DNA of 64,000 nucleotides. It comes from Escherichia phage vB_EcoM-172859UKE1. The DNA is taken from sequence record MZ234025.1; one strand, written 5' to 3'. Positions 7,132 to 43,816 of this stretch are shown one piece after another. The notes under the pieces were generated by a model. That model saw only the letters and a program-made list of their open reading frames with translations. It was not told the origin of the DNA and did no database searches. A program made the translations under genes and the position numbers. Positions within the stretch are counted from its first letter, which is position 1, and each line of letters opens with the position of its first letter.

Positions 7132-7605
7132 ATGTTATTATCAGGCGCAAAATATAAAGAAGAAAAACAAAAATTTTATGATGCACAGAATGGTAAGTGT
7201 CCTATTTGCCACCGTGAATTAGACCCTGATGTCCAAGGTAACCATCTTGACCACGACCACGAATTAAACGGGCCAAAAGCAGGTAGAGTTCGTGGGTTAC
7301 TCTGTAATCTGTGCAACGCAGCAGAAGGTCAAATGAAGCATAAGTTCAACCGTTCAGGTCTTAAAGGTCGTGATGTCGACTACCTAGAATGGCTTGAAGC
7401 TCTTCTTGCTTATTTGAAACAAGATTATTCTGATAATAATATCCATCCTAATTTTGTTCCGGACAAAACTAAAGAGTTCTCAAGACTAGGTAAAGAGGAA
7501 ATGATGGCCGAGATGCTTCAAAGAGGATTTGAATATAATGAATCTGATACTAAAACACAATTAATAGCTTCATTCAAAAAGCAGCTTAGAAAGAGTTTAA
7601 AATGA
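7132..7605 (+). CDS. 49: endonuclease VII (Holliday junction resolvase)
   Basis: 157 aa, same length as T4 gp49; zinc-binding CPICH...CNLCN motifs; adjacent to nrdD. Confidence 0.9.
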   Translation: MLLSGAKYKEEKQKFYDAQNGKCPICHRELDPDVQGNHLDHDHELNGPKAGRVRGLLCNLCNAAEGQMKHKFNRSGLKGRDVDYLEWLEALLAYLKQDYSDNNIHPNFVPDKTKEFSRLGKEEMMAEMLQRGFEYNESDTKTQLIASFKKQLRKSLK

Positions 7606-9419
7606 AAATTGAAAAAGAAATTGAAGGACTGATTCATAAAACTAATAAAGATCTTTTGAACGAGAATGCTAATAAAGATTCTCGTGTTTTTCCAACTCAA
7701 CGGGACCTTATGGCTGGTATTGTGTCTAAGCACATTGCCAAAAATATGGTCCCGTCTTTTATTATGAAAGCACATGAAAGCGGAATTATCCATTTCCATG
7801 ATATTGATTATTCTCCTGCTCTTCCATTTACTAATTGCTGTTTAGTAGATTTAAAAGGAATGCTTGAAAACGGATTTAAGCTTGGTAATGCACAGATTGA
7901 AACTCCTAAATCGATTGGTGTTGCTACTGCAATTATGGCACAAATTACTGCACAGGTTGCTTCACATCAGTACGGCGGAACGACTTTTGCTAATGTAGAT
8001 AAAGTACTTTCTCCTTATGTTAAACGCACCTATGCAAAACATATTGAGGATGCAGAAAAATGGCAAATCGCTGATGCGTTGAATTATGCCCAATCTAAAA
8101 CAGAAAAAGACGTATACGATGCATTCCAAGCGTATGAATACGAAGTAAATACTCTCTTTAGTTCAAACGGACAAACGCCTTTTGTAACAATTACATTTGG
8201 TACTGGAACCGACTGGACTGAACGAATTATTCAGAAGGCAATTCTTAAAAACCGCATTAAAGGCCTTGGTCGTGATGGAATAACTCCTATTTTCCCTAAA
8301 CTTGTTATGTTCGTTGAAGAGGGTGTCAATCTTTATAAAGACGACCCGAACTACGATATTAAGCAGCTTGCTCTAGAGTGTGCAAGCAAAAGAATGTATC
8401 CTGATATTATTTCAGTTAAGAACAATAAAGCTATCACTGGTTCATCTATTCCTGTTTCTCCAATGGGTTGTCGTAGTTTCTTGAGTGTATGGAAAGATTC
8501 GACTGGAAATGAAATTCTTGATGGACGTAATAATCTTGGTGTTGTAACACTGAATCTTCCTCGTATCGCATTAGATTCTTATATTGGAACACAATTTAAC
8601 GAACAGAAATTTGTTGAATTATTCAATGAACGAATGGACCTGTGTTTTGAAGCTTTGATGTGTAGAATTAGTTCTTTAAAGGGTGTTAAAGCAACTGTAG
8701 CTCCTATTCTTTACCAAGAAGGTGCATTCGGGGTTCGTCTTAAACCTGATGACGATATAATTGAGTTATTTAAAAACGGTAGAAGTTCAGTGTCCCTAGG
8801 ATACATTGGTATTCACGAATTGAATATTCTTGTCGGTCGTGATATTGGACAAGAAATTTTAACTAAAATGAATGCCCGTCTTAAACAGTGGACAGAAAGA
8901 ACCGGATTTGCTTTTAGTTTATATTCTACTCCTGCTGAAAACCTTTGTTATCGTTTCTGTAAACTCGATACTGAAAAATATGGAAGTGTAAAGGATGTTA
9001 CTGATAAAGGATGGTACACTAACAGTTTCCACGTTTCAGTAGAAGAAAATATCACTCCGTTTGAAAAGATTTCTCGTGAAGCACCGTATCATTTCATTGC
9101 GACGGGTGGTCACATTTCTTATGTTGAACTTCCAGATATGAAAAACAACCTAAAAGGACTTGAGGCTGTATGGGATTATGCTGCACAACATTTAGATTAT
9201 TTTGGTGTTAATATGCCAGTAGATAAATGTTTTACATGCGGAAGTACCCATGAAATGACTCCTACTGAAACCGGATTTGTTTGTTCTATTTGTGGAGAAA
9301 CTGACCCTAAAAAGATGAACACCATAAGAAGAACATGCGGTTATCTTGGAAATCCTAACGAACGCGGATTTAATCTCGGCAAAAATAAAGAAATCATGCA
9401 TAGGGTTAAACACCAATGA
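7602..9419 (+). CDS. nrdD: anaerobic ribonucleoside-triphosphate reductase
   Basis: 605 aa; C-terminal glycyl-radical region RRTCGYLG and Zn-ribbon CFTCG...CSICG; uninterrupted (no intron). Confidence 0.95.
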   Translation: MKIEKEIEGLIHKTNKDLLNENANKDSRVFPTQRDLMAGIVSKHIAKNMVPSFIMKAHESGIIHFHDIDYSPALPFTNCCLVDLKGMLENGFKLGNAQIETPKSIGVATAIMAQITAQVASHQYGGTTFANVDKVLSPYVKRTYAKHIEDAEKWQIADALNYAQSKTEKDVYDAFQAYEYEVNTLFSSNGQTPFVTITFGTGTDWTERIIQKAILKNRIKGLGRDGITPIFPKLVMFVEEGVNLYKDDPNYDIKQLALECASKRMYPDIISVKNNKAITGSSIPVSPMGCRSFLSVWKDSTGNEILDGRNNLGVVTLNLPRIALDSYIGTQFNEQKFVELFNERMDLCFEALMCRISSLKGVKATVAPILYQEGAFGVRLKPDDDIIELFKNGRSSVSLGYIGIHELNILVGRDIGQEILTKMNARLKQWTERTGFAFSLYSTPAENLCYRFCKLDTEKYGSVKDVTDKGWYTNSFHVSVEENITPFEKISREAPYHFIATGGHISYVELPDMKNNLKGLEAVWDYAAQHLDYFGVNMPVDKCFTCGSTHEMTPTETGFVCSICGETDPKKMNTIRRTCGYLGNPNERGFNLGKNKEIMHRVKHQ

Positions 9420-9886
9420 ATTATGATAGATTTTATCCTTGCGATTTTGTGAATGGCCCTGGTTGCAGGGTCGTTCTTTTCGTTACAGGTTGTTTGCATA
9501 AATGCGAAGGGTGTTATAATAAATCAACATGGAACGCTAGAAATGGTATTCCATTCACGGGTGAAACACTAGAGCAATTAATTGAATGTTTGAATAATGA
9601 TTATATAGAAGGATTAACTATAACTGGAGGAGACCCTCTCTATCCAGATAACAGAGATGTTGTTCATTGCATTGCTCAAACAGTAAAAAATCTTTATCCC
9701 AATAAAAGCATTTGGTTGTGGACAGGATATAAGTTTGAAGATATTAAACAACTAGAAATGCTTAAATATGTTGATGTTATTATTGATGGGAAGTATGAGA
9801 AAAATCTTCCGACTAAAAAGATGTGGCGAGGATCAGATAATCAGCGACTTTGGTCAAATACCGATGGGGTGTGGAAACATGATTAA
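9416..9886 (+). CDS. nrdG: anaerobic RNR activating protein (radical SAM)
   Basis: 156 aa; CxxxCxxC-type cluster (CLHKCEGCYN); ATGA-coupled to nrdD. Confidence 0.9.
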   Translation: MNYDRFYPCDFVNGPGCRVVLFVTGCLHKCEGCYNKSTWNARNGIPFTGETLEQLIECLNNDYIEGLTITGGDPLYPDNRDVVHCIAQTVKNLYPNKSIWLWTGYKFEDIKQLEMLKYVDVIIDGKYEKNLPTKKMWRGSDNQRLWSNTDGVWKHD

Positions 9887-24874: not shown

Positions 24875-25510
24875 ATGAAAACTACTCCTATTACTATCGC
24901 TATTGACGCAATCGTAAAACAAGCTTCATCTCTTGCCACTATGGCTAAAGTAATTAGTCAAAACCCTGCTCGTTATAATGCTATTCTAGAAACTCTTCGA
25001 CGCCCTGGACTTAGTAATTATGAAAGCCGGGTAATTATTACAGGTGTTGGTAAGAATGCTAATATCGCAACTAAAGCTTCCGAGACTTTTGCTTCACTAG
25101 GTATTCCTAGCATGTATTTGAATACCGGGCATTATTCTCATGGTGACGCAGGATTTATTGCACCTAATGATGTATTAGTTCACATCAGTCGTTCTGGTAA
25201 GACTGAAGAAATGATAGGTGTTGCTAAACATCTTCGTATGATTCGTCCTCAGGTTAAACAGATTCTGTTACATTGTAACCCTGACATTCCACAAGAATAC
25301 GAAGCTCTTTTTGATTATACGTTCTGTACCGGTATCGCGGTAGAAGTTGACGAGAACTCTTTAGCTCCGACAATGTCCACTACATTGTTGTTAGCGCTTA
25401 TCGATACGTTCGCTATCAACCTTTCGTCTGAACGTGGATTTACCTCTAATGATTTCCTTAAGTTCCATCCAGGCGGTGCACTAGGTGCCATGTTACGAGG
25501 CGAACAATGA
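24875..25510 (+). CDS. SIS-domain sugar-phosphate isomerase (KdsD/GutQ-like arabinose-5-phosphate isomerase-like)
   Basis: 211 aa; ...TGVGKNANIATKASETFASLGIPS..., YSHGDAGF, ISRSGKTEE and C-terminal HPGGALG resemble SIS domain of A5P isomerases. Confidence 0.75.
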   Translation: MKTTPITIAIDAIVKQASSLATMAKVISQNPARYNAILETLRRPGLSNYESRVIITGVGKNANIATKASETFASLGIPSMYLNTGHYSHGDAGFIAPNDVLVHISRSGKTEEMIGVAKHLRMIRPQVKQILLHCNPDIPQEYEALFDYTFCTGIAVEVDENSLAPTMSTTLLLALIDTFAINLSSERGFTSNDFLKFHPGGALGAMLRGEQ

Positions 25511-25691: not shown

Positions 25692-27377
25692 ATGAAAAAA
25701 GCTGTTATTCTTGGTGCTGGATTGGCAACTCGTTTATATCCAATAACGCATCATATTCCTAAGGTGCTTGTTAACTATAAACAAGACACTATTCTGAGCA
25801 ATTTGTATACAATTTATTCTGACCTTGGCGCAGATGAAATTATTGTAGTAGTTCATTCAAAATTTGCTGAAACTGTTCGAGCTTATTGTGAGCAAGAAGG
25901 GTTCAATGTGACTATTCGTACAGTTGATGAAGCGTATGGTTCTGCTTATGCTCTTGCTAAATTACACAAAGATTTAGACGGCCATAATGTAATTGTTAAC
26001 TGGTGTGATATTATTCCTGATTTTGGTTCATGGTCTTGGAATGTTAACGCAATCTATGTTAAGGGTGACGAATGTCGATATAATTTCGACGGTGAAAATA
26101 TCACTAACGTAGGTTCAACAGGTGGTAATGTTGTAGGAATTTATCAGTTCAAAGACTGGGAATTCTATATGGGTTCTACCGATGAGGAAATTCATGAATA
26201 CTGCAAAGGACGTGATTTCGTAGAATTCCTTTACAGCGGCGCATTCAATAAATCAGAGCTTATGAATATCATCGACCTTGGTGATATGCCTAAACTTGAA
26301 AAGGCCCATGAAGTTCGTGAACTGAACCGTAGTTTTAATGCAGTTGAAATTGGCGAAGAAACTGTAACTAAATTCGCATTAACCGAACAGGGTCGAGCTC
26401 TTCAGAAAGATGAGATTTCGTGGTATTTGAAAGTGAAATCAGATTCAGTTCCTCAGTTAGTTTCTGTTAATGAAAATAACTTTGAAATGGAACGCATTAA
26501 AGGTAAGCCGGCATTTGAATATATTAAATCAAAATCAAGTCTTGCTCGTCCACAAATTGTTGATGCAATTTTAGATGCACTGAAATTCAGCACAGACACT
26601 TATTTTGTAAGTCCTGAAACTGTTCGTCGTGATTTCACTAAAGAATTCTATACGAAAGTTATTGATCGTTGTGAAAGCATTCAACCATTGATTGATTCAT
26701 TTGGTAAAATCACACACGTGAACTACACTAAGATTGGACGTCTGAAGCCAATGCTGAAACAAGCTTTAGAACACCTTATTCGTTATCATAACCGTTCTCA
26801 GGGACAGTACTCTGTTATTCATGGTGACCCGAACTTCAGTAATACTATGATTACTGATAACGGCGAAGTCAAGTTTATCGACCCTCGTGGATATTTTGGT
26901 GAAACCAAGATTTACGGGCCAAAATTGTATGATGAAGCTAAAGTGCTTTATGCTGTTTCAGGTTATGATGAATTCAATGCTAATCCGACCTGGGGGCAGT
27001 TTACTATTGATGAAACAACTTGTAATGTGACTATTAACATCAATCCATTAGTTTACAAATATGGAAAGATGAGTTCGTTTAACGAGTATCATCATTTGGC
27101 AGTGGCAATTATCTGGATTGCATTAGGTGGTTATTTCAAGAATAATCCACTTAAAGCGGTAGCCGCATATTATAAAGGTATGGAACTTCTGACTAAGCAA
27201 TTACGTAACATGGGCCGTGTACTTCAAGACGGCTCTATTAGTTATGACGTAGCAGAACCTGTAACGGCTACTCTGATTACAAAAAATCCTGGTAAATGGG
27301 TACTAACTGATAAAGAAACTGGTGTTTCCTATCGTCCAATCGGTGGCGATATCACTCATCAATGGGAACGAATCTAA
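25692..27377 (+). CDS. bifunctional sugar-1-phosphate nucleotidyltransferase / kinase-like protein
   Basis: N-terminal AVILGAGLATRLYPIT (NTP-transferase G-x-G-x-R); C-terminal HGDPNFSN and IDPRG resemble APH/anomeric sugar kinase catalytic motifs. Confidence 0.7.
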   Translation: MKKAVILGAGLATRLYPITHHIPKVLVNYKQDTILSNLYTIYSDLGADEIIVVVHSKFAETVRAYCEQEGFNVTIRTVDEAYGSAYALAKLHKDLDGHNVIVNWCDIIPDFGSWSWNVNAIYVKGDECRYNFDGENITNVGSTGGNVVGIYQFKDWEFYMGSTDEEIHEYCKGRDFVEFLYSGAFNKSELMNIIDLGDMPKLEKAHEVRELNRSFNAVEIGEETVTKFALTEQGRALQKDEISWYLKVKSDSVPQLVSVNENNFEMERIKGKPAFEYIKSKSSLARPQIVDAILDALKFSTDTYFVSPETVRRDFTKEFYTKVIDRCESIQPLIDSFGKITHVNYTKIGRLKPMLKQALEHLIRYHNRSQGQYSVIHGDPNFSNTMITDNGEVKFIDPRGYFGETKIYGPKLYDEAKVLYAVSGYDEFNANPTWGQFTIDETTCNVTININPLVYKYGKMSSFNEYHHLAVAIIWIALGGYFKNNPLKAVAAYYKGMELLTKQLRNMGRVLQDGSISYDVAEPVTATLITKNPGKWVLTDKETGVSYRPIGGDITHQWERI

Positions 27378-27763
27378 TGCACCGTGTAGAAAACATGCTT
27401 AATCTTTGTTTTGATGTCGATGATTGTATAACAGAGTGGAATAACAATCGTGATTACGTGAACTTCAAACCAGACGTCGAAATGGTGTCTGCCATTAATG
27501 CTCTGTATGATGCAGGGCATACCATAACGCTTTACACTGCTCGCGGTATGAAGTCAGTAGGTCCTGGACGTATAGCAATTGACATTCTCCCAAGTCTGAT
27601 TCAGAACTTGGCAAACATTGGCTTGAAGTACCATAATTTGCTAACACATAAACCAGTATATGATTGGATTATCGACGACAAAGCTATGCGTCCTGACGAA
27701 TTCAAAGCTCTTATGAATAAAGGCGAATTCGAAACATTTAAACCATATAAACCGAATCTATAA
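27377..27763 (+). CDS. HAD-superfamily phosphatase
   Basis: FDVDDCIT (DxDxT motif I) near N-terminus; ~128 aa, size of KdsC/GmhB-type phosphatases; TAATG coupling. Confidence 0.7.
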   Translation: MHRVENMLNLCFDVDDCITEWNNNRDYVNFKPDVEMVSAINALYDAGHTITLYTARGMKSVGPGRIAIDILPSLIQNLANIGLKYHNLLTHKPVYDWIIDDKAMRPDEFKALMNKGEFETFKPYKPNL

Positions 27764-27820: not shown

Positions 27821-28981
27821 ATGAATACTTTTAAAATCGGAACGAATTTTGATTTAGCTCTTCTTGATAAAATCGTAGAGCTCAATAAAACTTATCCTAA
27901 TAGCTTGATAAATGAAGTATACGGCTCTACAAGAGAAATGGCTTTTGTAGCAGCCAGACCTGATTTTAGGCTTCCTGACGTTGACAAAAAGATGTTAGAA
28001 GATTACGTTAAACGTTGTAACGAATTAGGTATTTGCTTTAACTATACACTCAACACGATAAATCCTGGTTCAAAAAGAGAACTAGTTGAGTGGAAGAAGA
28101 AAGCTATTCAGGATTATGTTCAGTATCTTTGGTCAATAGGCGTATGGCGTATTACTATCGCTAACCCTGTTGTTATGGAAATTGTTCGTGAAGTCAATAA
28201 AGACATTGAGATTGAAGTTTCAACAATTCTACATGTCGATGCTGTAACTCAAATCAAATACTTGCATGACCAATATAATATCAAAAAGGTCTGCTGTGGA
28301 ATTCATAAGAACCGTTCAGTTTCTTTCCTGAAGCGTGCAGCAGAGTTTTGCAATAAGAACAATATAATATTTGAAGTTCTTGTAAATGAGTTCTGTTCTA
28401 ATGCTGGTAAAGGGTATACAACACATTGTAGCTATCGTGACTCTTGCTATATTTTCCATAGTACTGATGTTACAGCTGATGATGCTAAATCCTTAAACGG
28501 ATATCCTATGCAGCACTGTATTAAAGCTCGTGATACAGACCCATTTAACTGGTTGAGAACTCGTTTTGTTCGTCCTCAAGATTTGAAACTTTATAATGAT
28601 ATTGGTATCACTCAATTCAAAGTTTCAGGACGTACAGGTAGCACAGACTACATTTTGAAAGTTCTTGAAGCATACGCTTCTGAAAAGTTTGAAGGTAATT
28701 TGTTAGAACTGTGGAAGCCTTTAGAGACTATTTTCACTCTTGAAAACGAAACTGAGTTTTCACATACAGTAAATATTGAAACCTCTTTGTTAGATGGCTT
28801 TTTAGAAAAAAGGTGGTTCAGACATCCAGATTTCGATTGTGCTAATGAAATCTGCGGGACGACGTGTACATATTGTGAAAGATATTATAAACGTCAATTA
28901 TCTAAAAACGGGTTAGCAGAAAACTCTATATCTATTATTGATATAACTAACTCTGATGACGCTTTGAGGTACCCGGAATGA
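27821..28981 (+). CDS. U32-family-like Cys-rich protein (possible Fe-S enzyme)
   Basis: 386 aa; FNYTLNT, EVLVNEFCS...HCSYRDSC, FKVSGRTGS resemble U32 motifs; C-terminal CxxxCxxxCxYC. Confidence 0.55.
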   Translation: MNTFKIGTNFDLALLDKIVELNKTYPNSLINEVYGSTREMAFVAARPDFRLPDVDKKMLEDYVKRCNELGICFNYTLNTINPGSKRELVEWKKKAIQDYVQYLWSIGVWRITIANPVVMEIVREVNKDIEIEVSTILHVDAVTQIKYLHDQYNIKKVCCGIHKNRSVSFLKRAAEFCNKNNIIFEVLVNEFCSNAGKGYTTHCSYRDSCYIFHSTDVTADDAKSLNGYPMQHCIKARDTDPFNWLRTRFVRPQDLKLYNDIGITQFKVSGRTGSTDYILKVLEAYASEKFEGNLLELWKPLETIFTLENETEFSHTVNIETSLLDGFLEKRWFRHPDFDCANEICGTTCTYCERYYKRQLSKNGLAENSISIIDITNSDDALRYPE

Positions 28982-29061
28982 TTTCTAGAAAAACTTTTAA
29001 CCACCAACTTAATGAAGAGATTTTGACTATGAAACTGAACACTAATGACCAAATTCTTAAA

Positions 29062-29083
29062 CAGGCCCATCAGGGCCTGTTTG
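29062..29083 (+). terminator. GC-rich stem-loop (possible terminator) at the 3' edge of the sugar module
   Basis: CAGGCCC-atca-GGGCCTG perfect 7-bp stem followed by TTT. Confidence 0.35.
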
Positions 29084-29218
29084 AAACTAAAGCGGCTAAA
29101 GTGATTAAAGAAACCTGTTCAATTGGAATACTACGCTGATGCATTTCTTCATAGTGTTCTTGGAAGTATCGATGCTGAAGCTTTACGTTATATCAACATT
29201 GTCAAGAAATTCAAATAA

Positions 29219-29260: not shown

Positions 29261-29977
29261 ATGGGAAAACATAACACAATGAAATATATCAAAGCCGCAG
29301 ATTTTCAAACCGCATTTAAAGCAGTCAATCGTGAAATTTTAGAAAACCCGGAATTCGTAACTGATTCTCGTATTGGACGTTGTAATGAAATTGGGTCTAT
29401 GACAGTAGTTGTTGACACTCCATCATCATTCAAAATGACCGACCCACGTATTAACCGCATCTCTTATGAATATGCCGAAGACTTCTGGAAGTTTATGATT
29501 TCTGGTGGTACCAACGCAGAAGAAGCGTTTAAGGCATATCCTAATGTCGCTAAATTTATTTCTAAACCAAAATCAGATGTTTTGCCGGCGAACTTCAACA
29601 CTTTCTATGGTCCTCGCATTGCGGCCCAATTACCAGCTCTTCTAAAAGAACTTAAAGAGAAGCCTAACTCCCGAAGAGTTGTGTTCCAAATTCTAGAAAG
29701 TTCTGATCAGGCTTTGCTTGATTCAGACGAAACGCTTGAATATCCATGTACTGACTCAGTGACTTATTATATTCGTGATGGTAAGCTTTATACCCACTGT
29801 CATATGCGTTCTCAGAACTGTGCTGTTGTTATGCAGTTGGATTTTTATCTCCAAGGAAAATTACTTCATTATATCGCTAACGAATGTGGTGTAGAAGTTG
29901 GTGATTATACTCATACCATGGTAAGTGCCCATGTGTTTGAACGTGATTTTGATTATGTTAAAGGATTCCTTGACTAA
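29261..29977 (+). CDS. 42: dCMP hydroxymethylase gp42
   Basis: 238 aa thymidylate-synthase-fold protein; catalytic region EYPCTDSVTYYIRDGKL...HMRSQN parallels T4 gp42; lacks TS PCH motif. Confidence 0.85.
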   Translation: MGKHNTMKYIKAADFQTAFKAVNREILENPEFVTDSRIGRCNEIGSMTVVVDTPSSFKMTDPRINRISYEYAEDFWKFMISGGTNAEEAFKAYPNVAKFISKPKSDVLPANFNTFYGPRIAAQLPALLKELKEKPNSRRVVFQILESSDQALLDSDETLEYPCTDSVTYYIRDGKLYTHCHMRSQNCAVVMQLDFYLQGKLLHYIANECGVEVGDYTHTMVSAHVFERDFDYVKGFLD

Positions 29978-30876
29978 TGGCTATTTTCCGCGTACCTATT
30001 TTGAGTATGCGGTCTTATGAAACTGGACAGTATGCTATCCTTAAGGATGGCAACTTCCAACTTCATTTGCACCGTGCTAATCCGGGTGATGTGATTACAT
30101 ATCCACGTAATGCATCTGATATTAAAGAATGCGAACGTCTTTTTCCAGAATTTAAGTTTGTTCCATTATGGTATAAAGATAACGCGTATAACACTCGTAA
30201 ATATTTCTGGTCTGAAAATGAATTTGTGGTTGATTCATTAATTGCTTATTATGATTGTGATTTTCTAATCACAGATATCACTGGATATGACGGCGCTTTT
30301 GATGTAGAATTCAATTTCAATATCACTGCAGACCCTAATAAACCACGTTTTTATATTGACGAATTCTTAAAAACCGATATGTTGTCGGTTAATCGTTCAC
30401 TTCAAACTACTGTGTTGAATGAACGTCAAAAAGAAGTGCTGGTTAACGCAGGTGCAGATGGTAATAAGATTATCGTAACACAGAAAGTTATACGTCCTTC
30501 CATCATGCAGCGTCTTGTAGGTGATTTGGCTCCTATTCATCTAGATGGTATTTTTCATCCATTTCGAATTAGTGACCCATGCTATCGTTTTGAACAAGTG
30601 GTTGAATGTGCAATTCAATTAGGTCAACCGCTTTATATAACCGATCCAAATAATAGCTTCGACAGAAATAAGTATCCTGAAGAAGCGCTGATTCGAATTT
30701 TTAAACCAACTAAAACTGAGTACTATCAAATTCTTAAAGGACGTCCGAAGATTCAATATTTCGAAAATCCTGAAGAAGTATTCCATCCAGGTCTTGGCGA
30801 GTTCATCTACTTTAATGCTTTAATTTCTTCGCCGTATAATATACCTAAATACGAAGATGTTGTAATCGAGGAATAA
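29977..30876 (+). CDS. hypothetical protein occupying the beta-glucosyltransferase locus (candidate DNA sugar transferase)
   Basis: 299-aa ORF ATGA-coupled to gene 42; no similarity recognised to T4 beta-gt. Confidence 0.6.
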   Translation: MAIFRVPILSMRSYETGQYAILKDGNFQLHLHRANPGDVITYPRNASDIKECERLFPEFKFVPLWYKDNAYNTRKYFWSENEFVVDSLIAYYDCDFLITDITGYDGAFDVEFNFNITADPNKPRFYIDEFLKTDMLSVNRSLQTTVLNERQKEVLVNAGADGNKIIVTQKVIRPSIMQRLVGDLAPIHLDGIFHPFRISDPCYRFEQVVECAIQLGQPLYITDPNNSFDRNKYPEEALIRIFKPTKTEYYQILKGRPKIQYFENPEEVFHPGLGEFIYFNALISSPYNIPKYEDVVIEE

Positions 30877-30877
30877 A

Positions 30878-31426
30878 ATGGCTAAAATTATTTTAGTAGA
30901 TGGCCCGGATAATGCTGGTAAAACAACTTTCATTAATGACATAATGGAAATTAGTGAAAGATATGTAAAGATTGATTTCCCTAAAAGAACGGTTGATGGA
31001 CGTTTCGATGTTAAGTCTCGAAATGAAGTTGGCTGTTTCGAAACGATGTTGAATTATTTAGACCCTACTAAGATTTATCTATTAGACCGTGGATATATTA
31101 GTAACTGGGTTTATGGACGTATTCGTCAAGATGCGGACTCGGTTCTTGACGTTTATGAACAGGATTATGTTCGTCTTTGCCAAAACCATGATGTGTTCAC
31201 AATTATTTTAACACGTAACGAAATGACTGAAAGTTTTGAAGACGACCTTATTACTTTGTCTTCATTCGGTTTTAATACAGTCATTTCACATTTTGAAGAG
31301 TTTGCAATTCATAACAAAATCCAAACGTATCAATTACTTAATCATGATGGTGCTAACAAAGTTATAGGATTTAATGCAAGCGAACGTAATGATTTGATTA
31401 CAGAAATCATCAAATGGGCTCGTTAA
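30878..31426 (+). CDS. P-loop kinase (NMP/sugar kinase-like)
   Basis: N-terminal Walker A GPDNAGKTT and LDRGY region typical of small P-loop kinases. Confidence 0.6.
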   Translation: MAKIILVDGPDNAGKTTFINDIMEISERYVKIDFPKRTVDGRFDVKSRNEVGCFETMLNYLDPTKIYLLDRGYISNWVYGRIRQDADSVLDVYEQDYVRLCQNHDVFTIILTRNEMTESFEDDLITLSSFGFNTVISHFEEFAIHNKIQTYQLLNHDGANKVIGFNASERNDLITEIIKWAR

Positions 31427-43020: not shown

Positions 43021-43069
43021 AAGCTTATCAGCTAAATGACCTAACGTCCGTAAGACAGAGGAAAATATT

Positions 43070-43816
43070 ATGTTGTCAAATAATAAAATTAACAAAATCA
43101 ATCGTCGTCTTGACCACACCAGAGCTTCTGCGAAGAGACGCTCTAAGGATTTTAACTTAGACTTTAATTACCTTAAAAACATTCTTGATCAAAAGGTCTG
43201 CGCTTACTCAGGTGAATCTTTTAATAACTCTGTTGAAGGTGAGAAATTATCCTTAGAACGTTTTAATAATGATATCGGCTACATTAAAGGTAATGTTATC
43301 CCAGTTAAGAAAAAATATAACACGGCTCGTTCTGATTTAACATTAGAAGAACTTATTGAGAAACGTGATGCCATTGCAAGACGTATCGCTAATCCTTCCG
43401 CCCGTAAAGTAGAGAAACTTAATCTCGACGAGAAGAAATGGGCCCAAATTAAAAAGGTTTATGGTACTATTTTAAAAATCCGAGCAAAACGTGAAAATCG
43501 TGTTAAGCATATGGCAAACATGATGAAAAATCAACCTTTATCTAACGAATCTAAACTTAGAATTGTTGCTTTGAAAGCACGCATTAATGGCTCACATCAA
43601 GCAGAAGGCCATGAACTTACTAAACTCAACGTTCTTCTTAAAGGCTCTGACTGGAAAACTAAAACTAAATTAACTGACGCTGAATCGCTTTTCGATACAT
43701 ATGATAAAGTTATCCAAGGTCTGCAACGTTTTGAAAAGATTGGTTTCATTGGTAAATTAAAATTGAAACGTGGCTTACCACTTAGCGCATCATTATTCCA
43801 ACTGATTAAAGGTTAA
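43070..43816 (+). CDS. Srd-like protein (position of T4 srd)
   Basis: 248-aa basic protein between modB-like and dda, as in T4; sequence identity not verified. Confidence 0.5.
   Translation: MLSNNKINKINRRLDHTRASAKRRSKDFNLDFNYLKNILDQKVCAYSGESFNNSVEGEKLSLERFNNDIGYIKGNVIPVKKKYNTARSDLTLEELIEKRDAIARRIANPSARKVEKLNLDEKKWAQIKKVYGTILKIRAKRENRVKHMANMMKNQPLSNESKLRIVALKARINGSHQAEGHELTKLNVLLKGSDWKTKTKLTDAESLFDTYDKVIQGLQRFEKIGFIGKLKLKRGLPLSASLFQLIKG

Follow-up and report, generated by a model that had tools for sequence, protein, structure and literature searches.

What does a protein of the Peptidase U32 family do in the middle of a gene cluster that modifies phage DNA? The question is raised by an open reading frame (ORF) of 386 amino acids at 27821..28981 (plus strand, ATG start) in the 64,000-nucleotide stretch of Escherichia phage vB_EcoM-172859UKE1 DNA analyzed here (MZ234025.1; hereafter the window, whose numbering is used for all window features). 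The gene lies at a junction, with sugar-activation genes upstream and a thymidylate synthase (TS)-like synthase, a glycosyltransferase and a nucleotide kinase downstream. It is 100% identical to the corresponding gene of Escherichia phage APCEc01 and its product is 99.5% identical to gp50 of phage RB69, which identifies the window as part of a Mosigvirus genome and its U32 protein as RB69 gp50. The DNA of RB69 carries arabinosylated 5-hydroxycytosine (5hoC), not hydroxymethylcytosine, and the study that reports this names gp50 only in its Table 1, as a ‘Sugar or heterocycle reductase’ with fold matches to 5d88, and otherwise passes over it (Lee et al., NAR 2026, PMC13326640). From comparative genomics and the precedent of the family, we infer a hydroxylase activity, prephenate as the co-substrate, a nucleotide-level substrate and a role in anoxia; we regard it as fairly probable that the protein is a single-chain iron-sulfur (Fe-S) enzyme that hydroxylates C5 of a cytosine nucleotide, probably deoxycytidine monophosphate (dCMP), without O2 and with prephenate as the oxygen donor. 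Its role is most likely that of a back-up for the O2-dependent TS-like 5-hydroxy-dCMP (5hodCMP) synthase, with the same product.

The window protein belongs to a separate U32 subfamily

The Pfam family PF01136 (Peptidase_U32) matched residues 94-286 of the protein with 42.2 bits (E 7e-11; gathering cut-off 22.4), precomputed PF01136 matches are present on nearly all of its homologs, and PHROG 5757 (‘peptidase’) matched it over the full length. Scans of Pfam, NCBIfam and PHROG found no family besides U32 that claims the protein: Pfam recognized the U32 core and no further domain in the 386 residues, and the only NCBIfam match was the UbiU equivalog, far below its threshold (18.5 bits vs a cut-off of 440). 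The AlphaFold model, made with an 18-sequence alignment as input (mean predicted local distance difference test (pLDDT) 87.3, predicted template modeling score (pTM) 0.88), is a TIM barrel, and its top Foldseek match in the PDB is 5d88 (Mk0906; E 4e-7; target-normalised template modeling score 0.66). No other U32 protein is among the PDB fold matches, and Mk0906 is reportedly the only one with a solved structure. A search of the PDB chain sequences with the family profile returned no U32 entry and only chance matches (E ≥ 0.01), and the link to 5d88 is therefore visible by fold only. By these matches, the protein is a true member of the Peptidase U32 superfamily. Profile comparison with the E. 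coli paralogs by hhalign gave probabilities of 47% for RlhA (E 2e-4), 6% for TrhP, 5% for UbiU and <1% for UbiV, which places the protein in a separate subfamily, outside those of RlhA, TrhP, UbiU and UbiV; of the four profile alignments, only that to RlhA was strong enough for ligands to be mapped. An earlier note, made from the letters of the window alone, had placed the ORF at exactly these coordinates, had proposed its likeness to U32 proteins, and had named assignment to another well-defined family as the alternative; the profile searches bear out the likeness and gave no sign of another family.

Two cysteine sets are conserved in one chain

All three motifs on which the earlier note had based the U32 likeness are present in the translation: FNYTLNT (residues 73-79), a cysteine region that reads EFC(192)SNAGKGYTTHC(203)SYRDSC(209), and FKVSGRTGS (residues 266-274). 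The U32 motif and the first cysteine set (E190, C192, C203, C209 and C233; NEFC...HCSYRDSCYIFHS...HC) are encoded at 28394..28519 (plus strand) and were assigned by the RlhA profile alignment and by conservation. A second set of four cysteines near the C-terminus, encoded at 28838..28876 (plus strand), is a putative second Fe-S or metal site; the note had seen this cluster as well, but its ‘CxxxCxxxCxYC’ makes the first gap one residue too short, the spacing being C340-x4-C345-x3-C349-x2-C352. Conservation, which the note had named as a check, is high: ten cysteines, among them the C-terminal four, are invariant in the 18-sequence alignment, which reaches down to 48% identity, and among 248 family members the ligands of the first set are conserved at 79-100% (C192 and C233, 100%; C203, 99%; position 209, Cys in 79% and His in 20%) and those of the C-terminal set at 95-98% each, while K267 and R271 are conserved in 100%. 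Among 127 cluster representatives, E190 is kept in 72%, C203 in 98%, and position 209 is Cys in 60% and His in 39%.

The RlhA profile alignment spans residues 55-283, and in it E190, C203 and C209 fall on the RlhA motif E...C-x6-C, with a spacing of C-x5-C in the phage protein and five inserted residues that separate the Glu from the first of the two Cys; ‘SCYIFHS’ of the phage protein aligns with ‘QCYISHA’ of RlhA. Mutations in this motif abolish hydroxylation in RlhA and TrhP (PMC5727448, PMC6599085). The spacing of the first set, C-x10-C-x5-C-x23-C, differs from the canonical [4Fe-4S] pattern C-x6-C-x15-C-x3/4-C, and residues 190-210 have a pLDDT of 60-70; the low confidence of the model there would fit a loop that is ordered only with its cofactor bound. 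Because two conserved four-ligand sets stand in one chain, there would be two putative Fe-S (or metal) sites per chain, a number comparable to that of UbiU and UbiV together, each of which binds one cluster.

A chorismate mutase gene stands beside the U32 gene in isolated phages

Outside Mosigvirus, nine lineages of isolated phages carry a chorismate mutase gene just 3’ of the U32 gene. Enterobacter phage Entb_45 has an annotated chorismate mutase directly downstream (CM_2, 40.9 bits vs a cut-off of 27), and CM_2 matches above the cut-off stand next to U32 in Pectobacterium phage PM2, Yersinia phage TG1, Proteus phage Pm5461, Serratia phage CBH8, Escherichia phage EcS1 and Klebsiella phage F48. 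In Shewanella phage Thanatos-2, the U32-chorismate mutase pair has been relocated together to the other side of the block formed by the TS homolog, the glycosyltransferase GT1 and the kinase, with CM_2 again above the cut-off, and in Edwardsiella phage PEi26 the neighboring chorismate mutase was confirmed with a custom hidden Markov model (HMM). By genus, a type II chorismate mutase is found downstream of U32 in Kanagawavirus, Mosugukvirus, Tegunavirus, Bragavirus, Winklervirus, Kagamiyamavirus and Marfavirus. The phage enzymes align with the chorismate-mutase domain of E. coli PheA, and they keep Arg11, Arg28, Lys39, Glu52, Ser84 and Gln88, which we take to be the catalytic residues of the E. 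coli enzyme. This phage-type chorismate mutase occurs in 51 records of a phage database of 50,697; all 40 of those listed come from U32-carrying phage groups, and their annotated neighbors are always a TS homolog or a U32 ‘peptidase’.

The product of chorismate mutase is prephenate. Two U32 hydroxylases depend on prephenate genetically, namely RlhA, which makes 5-hydroxycytidine in 23S rRNA, and TrhP, which makes 5-hydroxyuridine in tRNA (PMC5727448, PMC6599085); for UbiU/UbiV, isotope labelling has shown that prephenate is the oxygen donor (PMC10990095), and operation without O2 has been shown for UbiU/UbiV and TrhP (PMC10990095, PMC5727448, PMC6599085). A CmoA-type Cx-SAM synthase, which uses prephenate in phage S-B43 (PMC12783734), was also considered as the user of prephenate and was rejected, since no gene of the cluster resembles CmoA.

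Seg-type homing endonuclease genes (segC, segB) lie directly upstream of U32 in PEi26 (L009 1852-2490) and in CBH8 (L010 1852-2490). Together with the 82-89% conservation of U32 across genera, these genes hint that the U32-chorismate mutase pair may spread horizontally as a cassette.

Many distant homologs lie beside base-modification genes

A word-indexed search gave 268 matches to the family, and an exhaustive search of clusters at 50% identity gave ~1,650 representatives at E ≤ 1e-3 and 433 at ≤ 1e-30. We retrieved 55 loci from viral contigs, 11 from genomes or contigs of metagenome-assembled genomes (MAGs), and several more by exact look-up; every neighborhood of this U32 subfamily that we examined looks phage-derived. 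Within a group of homologs 45-56% identical to the window protein, genes for prephenate supply recur in three forms: a stand-alone chorismate mutase nearby (L046, L048, L050, L051, L054, L056, L071, L074 and L075), a DAHP synthase-chorismate mutase fusion (L040, L043, L044, L053 and L073), and a DAHP-synthase-family gene alone (L082). Since the association takes three architectures, in lineages without synteny to Straboviridae, it is unlikely to be due to chance or to common descent.

Iterative searches within the loci found homologs of GT1 and of the thymidylate-kinase-like (Tmk-like) kinase near U32 in most loci of this group, with the GT1 homologs directly upstream of U32 in metagenomic phages. 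In ~27 loci, GT1 and/or the Tmk-like kinase (mostly both) are close to U32 and no TS homolog is found within ~8 kb; L032 is the only locus of the 45-56% group with one. Eight of these loci (L033, L037, L038, L041, L045, L057, L083 and L084) have a compact kinase-GT1-U32 block with no genes for arabinose-5-phosphate (A5P) isomerase, an AfhE-like protein or an HAD phosphatase, and ~19 further TS-less loci carry AfhE-like and/or A5P-isomerase-like genes or a chorismate mutase. Where the U32 protein is the only enzyme that lacks an assignment, the step still to be filled would be the hydroxylation of the base. In every Straboviridae locus, the TS homolog stands beside GT1, and in a third group, 35-38% identical to the window protein (L058, L063, L064 and L066), a TS homolog is directly upstream of U32.

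Some distant loci differ in other ways. On an 86-kb contig (L003 5135-15428), a 49%-identical U32 gene lies amid genes for NT5C, a deoxynucleoside kinase, a nucleoside deoxyribosyltransferase and a nicotinamide mononucleotide (NMN) transporter, together with a radical SAM/SPASM protein, proteins of the SAM-methyltransferase fold and a second, divergent U32 paralog with the same C-terminal cysteine motif; the gene set suggests another and more complex pathway of nucleotide modification, of which a 5-alkoxy pyrimidine is a possible product, by analogy with TrhP followed by CmoA/CmoB. On very large phage-like contigs with a PolIII-alpha replicase (L002 7447-9939, of 466 kb, and L085/L086 6504-8826), U32 lies between a dCMP deaminase and a conserved 250-residue protein with no family match that is 58% identical between the two large contigs; UDG-family genes are close by, and the arrangement suggests a uracil nucleotide as a possible U32 substrate in these phages. 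In L082 (8145-8891), a stand-alone DAHP_synth_1 protein follows U32 and is itself followed by an epimerase. The DAHP_synth_1 Pfam family includes KDO-8-phosphate synthase, a consumer of arabinose-5-phosphate, and the gene is ambiguous between a feed of the shikimate pathway and a KDO-like sugar. The kinase-GT1-U32 block of L084 (4777-13179) is accompanied by a weak match to T4 alpha-glucosyltransferase, Gly_transf_sug, a dCTP deaminase/dUTPase and a UDP-galactopyranose mutase; this phage probably makes a different glycan on its hydroxypyrimidine, possibly galactofuranose, a modification that has reportedly been found in Rhizobium phage RL38J1.

Distribution and conservation in relation to the base branch and to the oxygen lifestyle of the host

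Sugar genes, a TS homolog and GT1 are all present in Acinetobacter phage Kimel and in E. coli Dhakavirus VR5, both of which lack U32. In Acinetobacter phages, the U32-less cluster dominates: a search with AfhE found 57 Acinetobacter phage records, whereas the search with U32, whose matches were all at ≥ 80% identity, showed no Acinetobacter phage among the matches listed, with at most two that could be hidden by the category counts. Taken with the compact metagenomic loci, this is a double dissociation in which U32 goes with the base branch (kinase and GT1) and not with the sugar branch. No protein of the cluster is better conserved than U32, which is 82-89% identical between genera vs 40-72% for AfhE and 48-72% for GT1; in the Shewanella phage, its identity is 82% and that of UvsX only 68%. 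The cluster of VR5 (L014) is minimal, with no A5P isomerase, U32 or chorismate mutase, so that the phage presumably depends on KdsD/GutQ of its host and hydroxylates by the O2-dependent route alone.

The isolates that carry U32 all infect Enterobacterales or Shewanella. These hosts are facultative anaerobes, whereas Acinetobacter is a strict aerobe. At 47-52% identity, five homologs are on MAG contigs binned as Erysipelotrichales, Bacillota, Gastranaerophilaceae and Romboutsia (twice), all of which are anaerobic gut lineages; the phage contigs binned with strict anaerobes have a glycosyltransferase and a kinase beside U32 and no TS-like enzyme within 8 kb.

A proposed route to 5-hydroxycytosine in anoxia

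In the route that we propose, phage dCTPase and related enzymes supply dCMP, as is established for RB69 or T4-type phages. When O2 is present, the TS-like flavoenzyme makes 5hodCMP, an established step in RB69, where the homolog gp48 binds a flavin and takes the oxygen from O2 according to 18O2 labelling (PMC13326640). When O2 is absent, the U32 enzyme would oxidize the pyrimidine ring through its Fe-S clusters, and decarboxylation of prephenate would deliver hydroxide to C5 to yield 5hodCMP, phenylpyruvate and CO2, as in the chemistry proposed for UbiU/UbiV (PMC10990095). In most genera, the neighboring chorismate mutase of the phage would supply the prephenate; in Mosigvirus, where this gene is missing, host PheA and TyrA would have to do so. 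Kinases and DNA polymerase would then incorporate the 5-hydroxycytosine base, GT1 and further transferases would add arabinose on the DNA, and the U32 route would allow DNA with arabinosyl-5-hydroxycytosine to be made in the anoxic gut. The kinase and nucleotide-pool neighbors of the gene suggest that its substrate is a mononucleotide.

Several points weigh against this proposal. The likeness in sequence to RlhA, TrhP, UbiU and UbiV is weak, with hhalign probabilities of 47% at most. The window protein and its family read K-V-S/T-G-R (K267-V-S-G-R271 here) where the characterised enzymes UbiU, RlhA and TrhP all carry K-I-E-G-R, the Glu being Thr or Ser in most family members; judged from sequence, we treat this departure as a difference of the subfamily, not as exclusion from the superfamily. 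The Mosigvirus window has no chorismate mutase, and an unrelated, frameshifted small ORF occupies its slot. The absence of TS from the metagenomic loci covers flanks of ~8 kb only, and the anaerobic hosts were assigned by MAG binning, although the binned contigs are probably of phage origin. E. coli Dhakaviruses are without U32 although their host is a facultative anaerobe, and the correlation with oxygen lifestyle thus runs one way only. A dCMP deaminase, dCTP deaminase or dUTPase adjoins U32 in some loci, which makes uracil a possible substrate in those phages. Hydroxylase activity in vitro had not been demonstrated for any U32 protein as of 2024 (PMC10990095), and the literature, in a search that did not cover He et al. 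(HY126) and Mahler et al. 2025 (Cell Host Microbe), holds no biochemical or genetic test of gp50. The same search, of 8 million papers and with the same two outside its scope, found nothing that joins U32, phage and 5-hydroxycytosine, and no link between U32 and chorismate mutase in phage DNA modification; the 2018 paper on RB69 and the Thanatos paper do not mention the family of the gene.

Alternative roles of the U32 protein

A role in the sugar branch is the alternative suggested by the position of the gene, which adjoins the HAD phosphatase and the AfhE-like sugar-activation genes here and has AfhE-like and A5P-isomerase-like genes near it in many distant loci. The protein might then oxidize, reduce or hydroxylate arabinose or a precursor of it, or be the ‘sugar or heterocycle reductase’ of Lee et al., whose Table 1 carries that label (PMC13326640). 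The same work assigns UDP-arabinose formation in RB69 to the A5P isomerase, the AfhE-like bifunctional kinase/nucleotidyltransferase and the AfhF-like HAD phosphatase (PMC13326640), so the path from ribulose-5-phosphate to UDP-arabinofuranose is already covered; Acinetobacter phage DLP3 makes tri-arabinosyl-5hoC with a described cluster that lists no U32 gene, the eight compact metagenomic loci have U32, GT1 and kinase but no sugar-activation genes, and the recurrent link to chorismate mutase would be left unexplained. We therefore consider a role in the sugar branch improbable. The earlier note, which had placed the gene within the sugar module and left the sugar and the base open as targets of an O2-independent U32 hydroxylase, was right that it adjoins sugar genes, but the gene sits at their junction with base-modification genes; its sequence supports the possibility of such an enzyme, and the evidence favors the base, on account of the chorismate mutase link, the co-occurrence with GT1 and kinase without sugar genes, and the presence of sugar genes without U32 in Acinetobacter and Dhakavirus phages. 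A hydroxylase that acts on polymers, either on residual cytosine in phage DNA after replication or on host tRNA or rRNA, is somewhat easier to entertain, although still unlikely, since the pyrimidine-directed U32 enzymes characterised so far all have RNA polymers as their substrates and the conserved C-terminal cysteine cluster recalls the essential C-terminal cysteines of RlhA. However, the 386-residue protein is the U32 core only by Pfam, whereas RlhA (653 residues) has the additional DUF3656 motif; the gene is always amid a nucleotide kinase and pool enzymes (dCMP deaminase, dUTPase, deoxynucleoside kinase, NT5C), and an RNA-directed role would not explain the lack of a TS-type 5hodCMP synthase nearby.

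The adjacency of the U32 and TS genes in Straboviridae and in L058, L063, L064 and L066, and the loose binding of flavin by the TS homolog (PMC13326640), would also suit a protein that serves the TS-like 5hodCMP synthase as redox partner or maturation factor, such as an Fe-S flavin reductase, and has no hydroxylase activity of its own. We doubt this strongly, because RB69 gp48 and the kinase gp159 alone yield 5-hydroxydeoxycytidine in E. coli (PMC13326640), the TS homolog occurs without U32 in Acinetobacter and Dhakavirus phages, a TS gene is missing from the vicinity of most distant U32 homologs, and a redox partner gives no reason for the chorismate mutase link. Hardly any weight can be given to the collagenase-like peptidase of the database annotation: the name ‘peptidase’ does stand in GenBank, PHROG and Pfam, and collagen degradation has been reported for two cellular U32 proteins, but no catalytic mechanism is known for those collagenases, what is conserved here are cysteines that probably bind metal, and the genomic context is one of nucleotide and DNA modification throughout.

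Comparison with known systems

The hydroxylation of a cytosine nucleotide by the U32 protein, if correct, would have a close precedent in RlhA (YdcP), which shares with the phage protein a Glu followed by two Cys and CY(I)xH in the core, has essential cysteines in its C-terminal region, and requires both Fe-S cluster biogenesis and prephenate. Its product, 5-hydroxycytosine at C2501 of E. coli 23S rRNA, is the base found in RB69 DNA. RlhA binds ribosome precursors, is larger and has DUF3656, which the phage protein lacks; the first cysteine set is spaced C-x6-C-x15-C-x3-C in RlhA as against C-x10-C-x5-C-x23-C in the phage protein, K-I-E-G-R is replaced by K-V-S-G-R, and the predicted substrate of the phage enzyme is, unlike that of RlhA, a deoxynucleotide for DNA. 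UbiU-UbiV, also of the U32 family, hold [4Fe-4S] on conserved cysteines and back up flavin monooxygenases under anoxia. They are two proteins with one cluster each, in a pathway that also employs the accessory protein UbiT, whereas the phage protein has its two four-ligand cysteine sets in one chain, and they act on a lipid-soluble aromatic ring, unlike the substrate proposed here.

The pair formed by TrhP and TrhO is a further parallel, since one hydroxypyrimidine is made there by two unrelated enzymes, a U32 protein that depends on prephenate and a protein that depends on O2; both occur in facultative anaerobes, and strict anaerobes have the U32 route only (Sakai et al.), and the distribution of U32 and TS among the phages appears to parallel this. 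TrhO is a rhodanese, whereas the O2-dependent partner in the phages is a flavin-binding TS homolog, and the phage system differs also in its DNA-precursor substrate and in that its genes are viral and stand side by side. The 5hodCMP synthase (RB69 gp48, DLP3 gp80 and its HY126 counterpart) would share with U32 the product, the cluster and the downstream kinases and glycosyltransferases, but it has the TS fold with flavin and is unrelated to U32; as its oxygen comes from O2, it would not function in anoxia. The proposed U32/TS pair would mirror the aerobic/anaerobic pairs TrhO/TrhP, UbiIHF/UbiUV and NrdAB/NrdDG. We give about even chances to the broader proposal that the U32 subfamily comprises the first viral, DNA-directed prephenate-dependent hydroxylases, with both enzymes in phages of facultative anaerobes and U32 alone, together with its own prephenate supply, in phages of strict anaerobes.

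Other features of the window

Upstream of the U32 gene, all on the plus strand, are an A5P isomerase (SIS domain, RB69 gp55 homolog) at 24875..25510, a bifunctional nucleotidyltransferase-kinase (AfhE / RB69 gp52:53 homolog, the UDP-arabinose maker; Pfam NTP_transferase and kinase-like matches) at 25692..27377 and an HAD-type phosphatase of the sugar branch (AfhF / RB69 gp51 homolog) at 27362..27763. Downstream on the same strand are the TS homolog, counterpart of RB69 gp48 and hence of the 5hodCMP synthase (29261..29977; Pfam Thymidylat_synt, 56.9 bits), the DNA 5hoC arabinosyltransferase 1 (GT1, RB69 gp46:47 homolog; 29977..30876) and the Tmk-like nucleotide kinase (RB69 gp45 homolog; 30878..31426).

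Between U32 and the TS homolog lies a small ORF of 53 residues (28978..29139, plus strand), whose start overlaps the U32 stop codon (ATGA). Its equivalent, which corresponds to 28978-29217 of the window, encodes 79 residues in Shigella phage JK45 and in an IMG/VR contig (L016), and a 1-nucleotide insertion here (AAAGAAACC vs AAAG-AACC) shortens it; it may be a decaying gene or reflect a sequencing error. We considered the small ORF, in its 79-residue form, as a diverged chorismate mutase and rejected this, as it has no Pfam/CM_2 match, an HMM score of -0.8 and an hhalign probability of 0.07 against an alignment of the phage chorismate mutases, and a chorismate-mutase HMM match elsewhere in the window (43040-43813, E 0.004) was judged to be due to chance.

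The window also encodes the anaerobic class III ribonucleotide reductase NrdD (7602-9416, plus strand) and its activase NrdG (9416-9883, plus strand), both located by tblastn with the JK45 proteins, to which they are 97-98% identical; the phage thus already duplicates ribonucleotide reduction for anoxia. NrdD is a single uninterrupted ORF here, whereas nrdD of JK45 is split by an I-TevII-type homing endonuclease gene. The GenBank record of JK45 (MK962757.1) is labelled Tequatrovirus, but it is 99-100% identical to Mosigvirus over this region and carries the 5hoC-arabinose cluster, and the label looks wrong.

Implications

The known pathway to 5-hydroxycytosine needs an O2-consuming flavoenzyme, yet RB69-like phages live in the largely anoxic gut. 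If our proposal is true, an O2-independent enzyme would explain how a protective DNA modification is kept up there, and its loss would give a conditional, anaerobic phenotype of a kind missed by standard aerobic phage work, which would matter for the choice and engineering of therapeutic phages. The enzyme would also be of use for the family. According to a 2024 PNAS paper, no U32 hydroxylase has been reconstituted in vitro (PMC10990095), and the family is known to act on a ribosome precursor, tRNA and a membrane-bound quinone intermediate; a soluble enzyme of one 386-residue chain that takes a small molecule such as dCMP would, if the proposal holds, offer an in vitro system for the chemistry of U32 hydroxylation. 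Through this rationale, shikimate-pathway genes join the auxiliary metabolic genes of phages with a concrete reason for being carried. The U32 family and its chorismate-mutase or DAHP-synthase neighbors mark many uncultivated phages, which probably have glycosylated 5-hydroxypyrimidine DNA, and gut viromes would then hold a large unseen reservoir of O-glycosylated 5-hydroxypyrimidine DNA.

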